From the NCBI GenBank assembly GCA_027337125.1, contig GCA_027337125.1_3057.1: 64,000 nt of DNA; one strand, 5' to 3'. The position numbers were made by a program, and so were the translations under genes. This stretch comes from a phage. This document shows, piece by piece, positions 4,138-5,556 of the stretch (position 1 is its first letter; each line of letters begins with the position of its first letter). A model generated the notes under the pieces. The model did no database searches. It worked only from the letters and a program-made list of their open reading frames with translations, and was not told the origin of the DNA.

Positions 4138-4473
4138 ATGTCTGAAGTACAACAGCTACCAATTCGTGCTGTCGGTGAATTTGTTATTTTAGTTTCTGAA
4201 CCTGCGCAAGCTGGTGATGAAGAAGTTACAGAATCAGGACTTATTATTGGTAAACGTGTCCAAGGTGAAGTTCCTGAACTGTGTGTAGTTCACTCTGTTG
4301 GTCCTGATGTTCCTGAAGGTTTTTGCGAAGTTGGTGATTTGACTTCTCTTCCAGTTGGTCAAATTCGAAACGTTCCACATCCTTTTGTAGCTCTGGGTCT
4401 TAAGCAGCCAAAAGAAATTAAACAAAAATTCGTTACCTGTCACTATAAAGCTATTCCGTGTCTTTATAAGTGA
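4138..4473 (+). CDS. 31: co-chaperonin GroES homolog gp31
   Basis: 111 aa, begins [19 protein letters not shown]; size and position between cd and rIII as in T4. Confidence 0.88.
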
Positions 4474-4481
4474 TATAAATA
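4474..4481 (+). promoter_or_regulatory. candidate late promoter (TATAAATA) upstream of rIII
   Basis: Exact TATAAATA immediately after gene 31 stop. Confidence 0.45.
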
Positions 4482-4620
4482 ATAATATGAATTGGGTGTC
4501 GGAATAATAAGTTAACCGAACAATTCTATGTGGTAGTCTACAACTGAGAGATCTGTCGAAAGAAGATGAAATTCAGAAGAACGTGACTACCGAGTTTTAA
4601 TCTCTAACGAGAATTTTTAA

Positions 4621-4869
4621 ATGATTAAACAATTACAACACGCTCTTGAACTGCAACGAAACGCATGGAATAATGGTCACGAAAACTATGGCGCATCTAT
4701 TGATGTTGAAGCCGAAGCTCTTGAAATCCTGCGTTATTTCAAACATCTGAATCCTGCTCAAACTGCATTAGCTGCTGAGCTTCAGGAAAAAGATGAACTT
4801 AAATATGCTAAGCCTCTGGCTTCTGCTGCACGAAAAGCAGTTCGTCACTTTGTGGTAACATTGAAGTAA
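4621..4869 (+). CDS. rIII: rIII lysis-inhibition accessory protein
   Basis: 82 aa, same length as T4 rIII and immediately downstream of gene 31 as in T4. Confidence 0.8.
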   Translation: MIKQLQHALELQRNAWNNGHENYGASIDVEAEALEILRYFKHLNPAQTALAAELQEKDELKYAKPLASAARKAVRHFVVTLK

Positions 4870-5293
4870 TTATGCCGTGGTTGGTAGTTATCCTGGCGTT
4901 AACGATGTAAAACTACCAAATTTCAGTTAGTATCGAGGAGCCGTCGAACTGTCTGATTAATGATTTGCGAATCATTATAGTTTTAAGACCCCGGCAGTTT
5001 TACGGTGTACCTCTTGAATGTTATTCTTATAGCGGCAAGTGCATGCTACCCCGAGGTGATGGCCAATCGGGAGTACGCCTCAAGGCCTATATATCCATCA
5101 GTATATATCTTATCCTCGAGAAATCGAACCCGGAACCTTTAAGCTAACGGTGTGCAACAGATAAGAGCTATAAGGTATGTTGACGAGGTTTATGGTTATC
5201 CTGTCGTTAAATATCCAAAACCTATGTTCCCCTTGAGGGCTTTCGCAGGCAATGCCAATAAGTCCTGCATTTTCATTTAAAAGAGAATTTATA

Positions 5294-5470
5294 ATGGCAA
5301 AACAAGCTAAAGCAAAGAAAGCAGTTGAAAAGAAAGTTGGTGATTCTAAACGCGCTGGCTACAAGCGTGGGTCGAACTCTCGTATCAATCAAACTATTGA
5401 GAAGATCATGCGCCGAGCACGTGCGGTTCTTCGAGATGATGCTTCTCGTTTTGGTAAGCAGAAAGCATAA
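5294..5470 (+). CDS. small highly basic protein (58 aa; K/R-rich)
   Basis: MAKQAKAKKAVEKKVGDSKRAGYKRGSNSR...; AAGAG RBS 9 nt upstream; followed by strong terminator. Confidence 0.55.
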   Translation: MAKQAKAKKAVEKKVGDSKRAGYKRGSNSRINQTIEKIMRRARAVLRDDASRFGKQKA

Positions 5471-5474
5471 GTTA

Positions 5475-5500
5475 AGGACTCCTTCGGGAGTCCTTTTTTA
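5475..5500 (+). terminator. rho-independent terminator (UUCG tetraloop hairpin + T tract)
   Basis: AGGACTCC-TTCG-GGAGTCCT followed by TTTTTTATTTT. Confidence 0.7.
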
Positions 5501-5523: not shown

Positions 5524-5556
5524 GTTTACAGTATAGTTCCTTTGTGATAGTATTAT
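5524..5556 (+). promoter_or_regulatory. candidate early promoter (GTTTAC ... TGaTAGTATTAT)
   Basis: GTTTAC at 5524-5529, extended -10-like TGaTAGTAT/TATTAT at 5545-5556; spacing slightly atypical. Confidence 0.35.

Follow-up and report, generated by a model that had tools for sequence, protein, structure and literature searches.

Positions 4870-5293 of the window (the whole 64-kb stretch of phage DNA analysed here) form the spacer between rIII and gene 30.9 of a Tequatrovirus-like phage. This spacer is non-coding, and is not a pseudogene, a tRNA or a member of an Rfam family. Within it we identified element B, a complex RNA fold that represents a new RNA family. The fold of B, its strand and its non-coding nature are shown; its function is unknown. 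The order of modules in the window is L', A1, B, L, S, a terminal hairpin and a Shine-Dalgarno (SD) hairpin (Table 1). Transcription of the gap is inferred, in the absence of expression data.

Table 1. Features of the rIII-30.9 region, in window coordinates.
Feature	Position	Strand	Description
Late-promoter consensus	4474-4481		TATAAATA; directly after the gene 31 stop codon (4471-4473)
rIII	4621-4869	+	Upstream cistron; phrog_1457, lysis inhibition accessory protein, E 5e-44
L'	4872-4919	+	First copy of the L H-type pseudoknot; contains the first predicted palindrome
A1	4934-5020	+	Long irregular hairpin; outer stem GAGG (4935-4938) with CCUC (5010-5013)
B	5026-5174	+	149-nt RNA of complex fold; covariance model, 29-sequence alignment
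L	5175-5226	+	Second pseudoknot copy, with a conserved loop
S	5226-5245	+	Small hairpin, GUUCCCC-UUGA-GGGCUUUCG
Terminal hairpin	5245-5268	+	GCAGG, 14-nt loop CAAUGCCAAUAAGU, CCUGC; the third predicted palindrome
SD hairpin	5269-5288	+	AUUUUC...GAGAAU, predicted to pair the Shine-Dalgarno region of 30.9; MFE fold, palindrome I6
gp30.9	5294-5470	+	Downstream cistron; basic, 58 aa; phrog_1427, family with unknown function
Intrinsic terminator	5474-5495	+	Strong; 9-bp GC-rich stem then U run; right after 30.9
Early-promoter-like site for 30.8	5525-5553	+	TTTACA-17-TAGTAT with TG, T4-early type

Genomic locus

The sequence around the gap (1.3 kb) is 96.5% identical to many Tequatrovirus genomes. 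Genes cd, 31.2, 31.1, 31, rIII, 30.9, 30.8 and 30.7 follow one another in the T4 order, all on the + strand. The spacer between rIII and 30.9 is 150-430 nt long in every T4-like phage that encodes 30.9. We place the start of 30.9 at the ATG at 5294, as the N-terminus encoded from there (MAKQ...) is kept in 21 homologues. The upstream ATG at 5252, used as the start in some annotations, is not conserved and was rejected. All 66 homologues of gp30.9 are from T4-like phages, and searches of Pfam and PDB returned zero matches. The AlphaFold model (pLDDT 68) consists of a single helix (residues 29-53) and a disordered basic N-terminus. The protein offers no clue to the function of the spacer in any of these sources (PHROG, Pfam, PDB, AlphaFold).

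Annotation of this locus is inconsistent in public records (window positions 5252-5293; locus L002, 1039-1336; locus L005, 1383-1632). Some begin 30.9 at the upstream ATG (a 72-aa 'ORF 31.-2'), others in GenBank place small ORFs within B and L, and some label 30.9 a '1,4-alpha-glucan branching enzyme'. The ORFs annotated inside B are spurious. The analysis corrects several GenBank records, which either put ORFs inside B or lengthen 30.9 upstream.

The original prediction, made from the sequence alone, described the gap as ORF-free, GC-enriched and palindrome-rich. This description held, and its coordinates and all the repeats it listed are exact. The repeats are TTGGTAGTT (4881-4889) with AACTACCAA (4911-4919), enclosing CGTTAACG (4897-4904); (T)AATGATT (4958-4965) with AATCATT(A) (4970-4977), around the loop TGCG; and GCAGG (5245-5249) with CCTGC (5264-5268). 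The gap was also claimed to be the longest ORF-free stretch, which is correct at a 65-aa threshold: 4870-5251 (382 nt, both strands) is the largest such stretch in the 64 kb, and the second-largest internal stretch measures 239 nt. Lowering the threshold to 50 aa introduces a single interruption, a 60-codon TTG ORF (4965-5147). This ORF had been considered spurious, and it has no PHROG match. GC content is 41.7%, compared to 35.9% in the window (94th percentile of 424-nt windows), and reaches 47% in element B. The statement that no tRNA cloverleaf could be built was borne out by ARAGORN, which found 0 tRNA or tmRNA genes in the whole window. A search with Rfam 15, whose 4227 models cover group I introns, ribozymes, riboswitches, EAR and retron msr among others, gave 0 matches within 4870-5293 at E<=10. 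Searched alone, B had no match at E<=10, and the divergent spacer of phage EcS1 gave only noise.

The original reading was that the region is a non-coding RNA with structure, or else a long leader that regulates the downstream basic protein. This is supported at the level of structure, and transcription and function remain inferences. The folding energy of the single sequence is not significantly below that of shuffles on either strand (z -0.8 to -1.6), so the palindromes alone prove little. We take them as real because of covariation in related phages, which covers most of the region. All three predicted palindromes fall within conserved modules: the first is stem 2 of L', the second is the apical hairpin of A1 and the third is the terminal hairpin. 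Two outcomes had been named as refuting the prediction, a coding pattern and a lack of conserved structure, and neither was seen in homologues. The main element, B, had been overlooked; the only long perfect repeat in it is its 8-bp closing stem. The modularity of the spacer and its partial absence from T4 were beyond the reach of the original prediction. We found no description of these spacer RNAs in the full-text literature searched.

Structure of element B

B is closed by stem P1 (5026-5033 with 5167-5174), which leads to a perfect four-way junction of P1, P2, P4 and P5 with zero linker nucleotides. P2 continues through a conserved 8x6 internal loop into P3. The P3 loop (UGAUGG, 5057-5062) and the P4 loop (CCAUCA, 5095-5100) form a 6-bp Watson-Crick kissing interaction. 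All 6 bp are present in 29/29 sequences, in five covarying versions (including CGAUGG/CCAUCG, UGAUGG/CCAUCA, CUAUGG/CCAUAG and CAAUGA/UCAUUG). P5 leads to a three-way junction with P6, a tetraloop hairpin (5116-5127), and P7. The loop of P7 and the 3' joiner form a nearly invariant 20-mer, GCUAACGGUGUGCAACAGAU (5143-5162), in which the sole change is one C-to-U in Yersinia phage fHe-Yen9-01. An RNAalifold 'helix 4' within the P3 loop was superseded by the kissing loop, which is better supported. B (5078-5085) and S (5231-5238) share 8 nt of complementarity, which is unconserved in other genera and is treated as chance.

Across the 29 distinct sequences, pairing holds in 99.0% of 1356 cells of the refined structure, which comprises 47 pairs. 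Compensatory changes affecting both sides occur in 24 of the 47 pairs. The observed values were reached by 0 of 500 shuffles, and pairing fell to 25-42% when partners were slid by 1-3 columns. Close relatives make up much of the alignment, and the shuffle controls therefore overstate significance. For this reason the argument is carried by the slid controls and by the divergent sequences of EcS1, Yen9, COW86c and 4S.

A covariance model of B (R1), built from nine sequences spanning its diversity, has a single match in the window, at 5026-5174 (177 bits, E 2e-38). The minus strand of B scores at most 7.4 bits, and G.U pairs are frequent (e.g., pair 77-84 is U.G in 26 of 29 sequences). Thus, we conclude that the + strand RNA is the selected molecule.

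Distribution and conservation of element B

We identified B at 412 places in 411 phage records, with one copy per genome. About 1006 records encode gp30.9, so B occurs in ~40% of T4-like phages. The carriers belong to at least seven genera according to the taxonomy given in the records themselves (Tequatrovirus, Dhakavirus, Gaprivervirus, Moonvirus, Karamvirus, Kagamiyamavirus and Tegunavirus), and also include unclassified phages of Klebsiella, Serratia and Erwinia. B is absent from T4, T2 and T6, Mosigvirus ATK48, Karamvirus CC31 and Gelderlandvirus STML-198. The distribution is all-or-none, with scores of either >=120 bits or <10 bits and none in between. Presence and absence vary among near-identical Tequatroviruses, and both states are found in Karamvirus. 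B was not identified in the E. coli genomes searched. Loci with the conserved core pattern (80 bacterial, 120 metagenome and ~90 further viral) were scored with the model, and only T4-like contigs scored.

The synteny of B is strict. Gene 30.9 lies downstream in all 36 loci with enough flank, and rIII was recognised upstream by motif in 34 of these; one more (L017) was confirmed by ORF listing, leaving locus L016. This pattern does not in itself imply a function in cis, as vertical inheritance alone could account for it.

B is more conserved than the genes that flank it. In Dhaka-, Moon-, Karam- and Klebsiella-phage lineages it is 91-98% identical to the window, whereas gene 31 is 66-80% and rIII 73-84% identical in the same lineages. 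The 135-nt core is 91-96% identical in phages of Klebsiella, Enterobacter and Citrobacter, compared to 66-84% for flanking genes.

The difference between T4 and the Tequatroviruses that carry B is a clean indel at GAATGT|...|ATGATG. Since T4, T2, T6, ATK48, CC31 and STML-198 keep 30.9 without B, we infer that B is not required for expression of this gene. A 5-nt direct repeat, ATGTT, brackets B (5018-5022 and 5177-5181), and STML-198, which is without B, has a single ATGTT at its A1'-L junction. Insertion with duplication, or deletion via microhomology, could each have produced this pattern.

Other modules of the spacer

L' and L are two copies of an H-type pseudoknot. In L', stem 1 pairs AUGCC (4872-4876) with GGCGU (4895-4899) and stem 2 pairs UUGGUAGUU (4881-4889) with AACUACCAA (4911-4919). 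L' is a direct repeat of 5172-5221 (72% over 50 nt). This copy is peculiar to the window; L modules from Karamviruses and a Citrobacter phage are the most similar to it, with the best match in Citrobacter phage Ursula (94.6%). In L, stem 1 pairs UGACG (5181-5185) with UGUCG (5202-5206) and stem 2 pairs GGUU (5194-5197) with AACC (5219-5222). The loop contains a conserved AUCC...CGUUAAAUAUCCAAA. The characteristic pattern is a conserved 5' AUGNN that pairs with NNCGU inside the apparent loop of the outer hairpin. In a test on 17 modules from different phages, the interleaved stems were 82.6% paired, compared to 37-56% when slid, and stem-1 pairs 5-27 (UA/AU/CG/GC) and 6-26 (CG/GC) were paired in 17/17. 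All genera examined have L, even where B is missing (T4, CC31, STML-198).

A1 is almost unchanged in T4, Mosigvirus, Dhakavirus and Gaprivervirus. It has 25 predicted pairs, among them the apical hairpin at 4958-4977 (the second predicted palindrome), and two compensatory double changes (G-C to A-U in locus L014; C-G to U-A in SP18). Covariation support for A1 is modest because the sequences are nearly invariant; one row of the alignment (L009) is noise.

S is kept in all genera, at positions that vary between before and after B and L. The loop of the terminal hairpin is the same in Gelderlandvirus, on a different stem (GAACUGG/CCAGUUC). The stem has a G.U variant in L014, and other hairpins occupy the equivalent place in other genera. 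We considered the terminal hairpin plus AUUUUCAUUU as an intrinsic terminator and rejected it: the terminator scan did not call it, its loop spans 14 nt and its U tract is broken. An MFE fold of 5226-5300 pairs AGGGCUU (5236-5242) with AAGUCCU (5260-5266), in competition with S and the terminal hairpin. This alternative is not obviously conserved across genera and its energy is not below that of shuffles.

All other genera have equivalent anti-SD/SD hairpins (UCUCC...GGAAGA), and in SP18 the pairing is compensated (AUUCU/AGAAU). We infer that the SD hairpin sequesters the Shine-Dalgarno sequence of 30.9. This inference rests mainly on conservation, as there is only a single compensated variant.

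Recurring spacer blocks were identified by eye and by tool alignment. T4 has the order X-A1-L-S-hairpin, without B. Moon and PG7 have B-L-S-H, Roth17 has L-X-B-S-H, Serratia phage 4S has L-B-S, EcS1 and COW86c have S-B-L, and CC31 has S-L. Because module order differs between genera, and because L' replaces X in the window, we conclude that the spacer is a recombinational mosaic. The locus emerges as a hotspot of RNA-module shuffling between phage genera.

Module X is a hairpin with a conserved loop, U(G/A)CC(U/A)(U/A)AGU, on covarying stems (UCAC/GUGA, UCGC/GCGG, UUGC/GCAG). It was identified after rIII in T4, ATK48, Yen9 and Roth17 (L003, 1352-1390; L004, 1465-1503; L020, 1080-1115), the place taken by L' in the window.

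Transcription context

The late-promoter consensus after gene 31 is likely to be one start point of the rIII-30.9 transcript, as inferred from its sequence. One paper (PMC9409239) notes that early, middle and late promoters all serve rIII, and cites a study of rIII and 30.9 expression. A promoter scan found no sigma-70-like site between 4675 and 5524. The terminator after 30.9, followed by the promoter-like site before 30.8, indicates that 30.9 is the last cistron of its unit. With no promoter in the gap and a terminator after 30.9, the spacer is most simply internal to the rIII-30.9 transcript; transcription through it is an inference. A sub-threshold Rfam match to Atu_C8 at 5474-5495 is merely the terminator.

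Proposed function

We favour, with a probability of roughly 0.6, the explanation that the gap is a transcribed, modular RNA spacer and structured leader of 30.9, in which B is an autonomous partner-binding domain. The polycistronic rIII-30.9 mRNA would be made from the + strand, from promoters upstream of rIII (including TATAAATA) to the terminator at 5474-5495, and the spacer would function at the RNA level, neither encoding a protein nor serving as a DNA site. L', A1, B, L, S and the terminal and SD-pairing hairpins would each fold independently. In each module the stems covary while the loops stay constant, which suggests a trans-acting partner. The last 50 nt would be the translation-initiation region of 30.9, with the Shine-Dalgarno sequence paired in the small hairpin, and for this reason we read the whole spacer as a structured leader for this gene.

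B would be an accessory domain of the leader, closed by its own P1 and with a compact body and long conserved single-stranded segments. We infer autonomy from the closing stem (P1 covaries freely), from neighbours that differ by genus, and from the loss of B without loss of 30.9. The very high conservation of B, stems included, across hosts that share core machinery suggests contact with a conserved macromolecule. Our best guess is that the infected enterobacterial cell supplies a conserved macromolecule or ligand to which B binds. Once bound, B may modulate the surrounding mRNA (its processing, its stability or read-through into 30.9), or B may be released as a stable RNA. No expression data are available, and both a discrete B RNA and any binding partner are inferred. 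A cis element for processing, stability or read-through, a released stable RNA and a ribozyme are indistinguishable on present evidence.

A bolder reading, possible but less likely than not, makes B the first member of a new functional RNA class limited to enterobacterial T4-like phages. Its role might then be that of a ribozyme or of a riboswitch whose read-out is unconventional, or B might engage conserved host machinery, such as RNA polymerase, the ribosome, an RNase or a defence protein. The loss of B from the model phage T4 would explain why it has gone unnoticed, and the other hairpins and pseudoknots, whose loops are all conserved, would give the same post-transcriptional system additional binding sites.

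Alternative explanations

It remains possible that B is released from the transcript and acts in trans as a stable RNA, serving as decoy, sponge or scaffold for a protein of the host or the phage, perhaps with a role in counter-defence. It is accessory, being present or absent among near-identical Tequatroviruses and within Karamvirus; its fold is autonomous, closed by P1; its sequence conservation across hosts sharing core machinery is tRNA-like; and the shuffling of neighbouring modules is as expected of a fast-evolving accessory region. However, B has no promoter or terminator of its own (in Moon it begins 4 nt past the rIII stop), there is no evidence of processing sites, it is always at one locus, and no similarity was found to E. 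coli sequences or to the bacterial genomes searched. It is unlikely that B is a riboswitch aptamer that binds a small metabolite and switches 30.9 expression. The fold is aptamer-like and backed by covariation (P1, junctions of several helices, kissing loops and extended invariant segments in the junctions), B is 5' of 30.9 on the same strand in 36/36 loci, and an SD-sequestering hairpin lies downstream. A classical riboswitch is nevertheless disfavoured because no alternative pairing of P1 or P5 with downstream sequence was found in 10 lineages (RNAduplex z -1.8 to +1.3 relative to shuffles). In addition, 75-150 nt of genus-varying modules separate B from the start codon, the terminal hairpins are identical with and without B, the stems are conserved far beyond the needs of pairing, and no Rfam riboswitch matches. 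Also unlikely is a self-cleaving ribozyme, or an RNA-processing or antitermination element acting between the rIII and 30.9 parts of the transcript. B is inside the operon, 5' of hairpins with U-rich tracts and of a strong terminator, a position that resembles those of EAR and put RNAs, and it has a compact pseudoknotted fold and the nearly invariant 20-mer. Yet it matches no ribozyme, EAR or other Rfam model, its 149 nt exceed the length of most self-cleaving classes, no cleavage site is identifiable in the sequence, and phages without B have the same downstream hairpins.

We consider it very unlikely that the element acts as DNA (a replication origin, a recombination or homing site, or a promoter cassette) or that B is a functionless selfish insertion. 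One record marks a 10-bp 'ori type 2 repeat' nearby, the ATGTT repeats around B and the single ATGTT at the empty STML-198 site could be read in this way, and B is polymorphic for presence. Against a DNA element, the G.U pairs and the scoring of the model on only one strand indicate selection on RNA, the gap has no sigma-70-like promoters, and each genome has a single copy with none elsewhere. Strong purifying selection on unpaired segments argues against selfish junk. A decayed protein gene or small peptides (the ORF at 4965-5147, or a 'YVDEVYGYPVVKYPKP' frame across L) can be all but excluded. In its favour, small ORFs are annotated here in GenBank records and the L loop shows some third-position-like variation. 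However, B has stops in all six frames in every homologue, its variable columns show no codon periodicity (28/26/29), and a PHROG search found no match for the ORFs of the gap. T4 and the window differ in L by +1/-1/-1 indels within 40 nt, and the frame across L has in-frame UAA codons in EcS1, COW86c and CIP9/PEi20. Variation tracks base-pairing instead. Module L as the remnant of a 'YVDEVYGYPVVKYPKP' peptide gene was accordingly ruled out by the frameshifting indels, the in-frame stops and the covarying stems.

Comparison with known systems

The leader of the T-even gene 32 mRNA has an autoregulatory H-type pseudoknot that is recognised by a protein. L meets the criterion for an H-type pseudoknot (two interleaved covarying helices). 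Like the gene 32 structure it is in a non-coding leader, and it has a conserved loop and covarying stems. No sequence relationship between the two was seen, and the partner of L is unknown. Unlike the gene 32 pseudoknot, L is 70-420 nt upstream of the start codon and its order relative to other modules changes. Protein binding or repression by L is suggested only by analogy with gene 32.

B shares a closing P1, multi-helix junctions, Watson-Crick kissing loops and conserved junction nucleotides with the aptamers of purine and lysine riboswitches, and these RNAs, like B, are upstream of a gene on the same strand. Unlike them, B has no Rfam match and no expression platform coupled to P1, is dispensable for the downstream gene in many phages, and has unusually invariant stems.

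HK022 put and Bacillus EAR are intra-operon RNAs of ~70-120 nt that act on the transcribing polymerase. B is similar in size and position and has a strong terminator downstream, and the likeness is by analogy only. In contrast to put and EAR, it matches no Rfam sequence or structure model and there is no evidence that it controls read-through.

T4 rnaC and rnaD (species 1 and 2) are stable RNAs of ~120-140 nt in the tRNA cluster, with unknown function. The B model, run with filters off on the rnaC/rnaD/tRNA region of T4, scored at most 4.6 bits. T4 has rnaC and rnaD but not B, and the locus differs (the tRNA cluster versus the rIII-30.9 spacer). PeSL cassettes combine an early promoter and a stem-loop and are shuffled between T4-type genomes. 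The spacer modules are likewise short and shuffled between such genomes. They differ from PeSL cassettes in that the gap has no promoter-like site and the covarying RNA folds are confined to one locus.

No virulent phages are better studied than T4 and its relatives, and T4-like phages are used in phage-therapy work, yet no such RNA has been annotated in them. With higher conservation than its neighbours and a presence in ~410 of ~1000 sequenced T4-like genomes, B is a strong candidate for a new functional RNA class. It should clearly interest both RNA and phage biologists, and the natural alleles without it make it readily testable: T4, T2 and T6 are natural knock-outs with the same spacer, from which an isogenic comparison would be easy to build.

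An additional element in the gene 31-rIII spacer

We identified a further conserved and structured element, H, in the spacer between gene 31 and rIII (4532-4591, + strand), for which there is no Rfam match. Its GGUAGUC...GACUACC stem encloses both CUGA...UCAG and AUCU...AGAU, around GUCGAAAGA. Element H takes another position in Moon, PG7 and Klebsiella phages, just 5' of 30.9, and has covarying stems there (GGGAGC/GCUCCC, CCGA/UCGG and AACU/AGUU).
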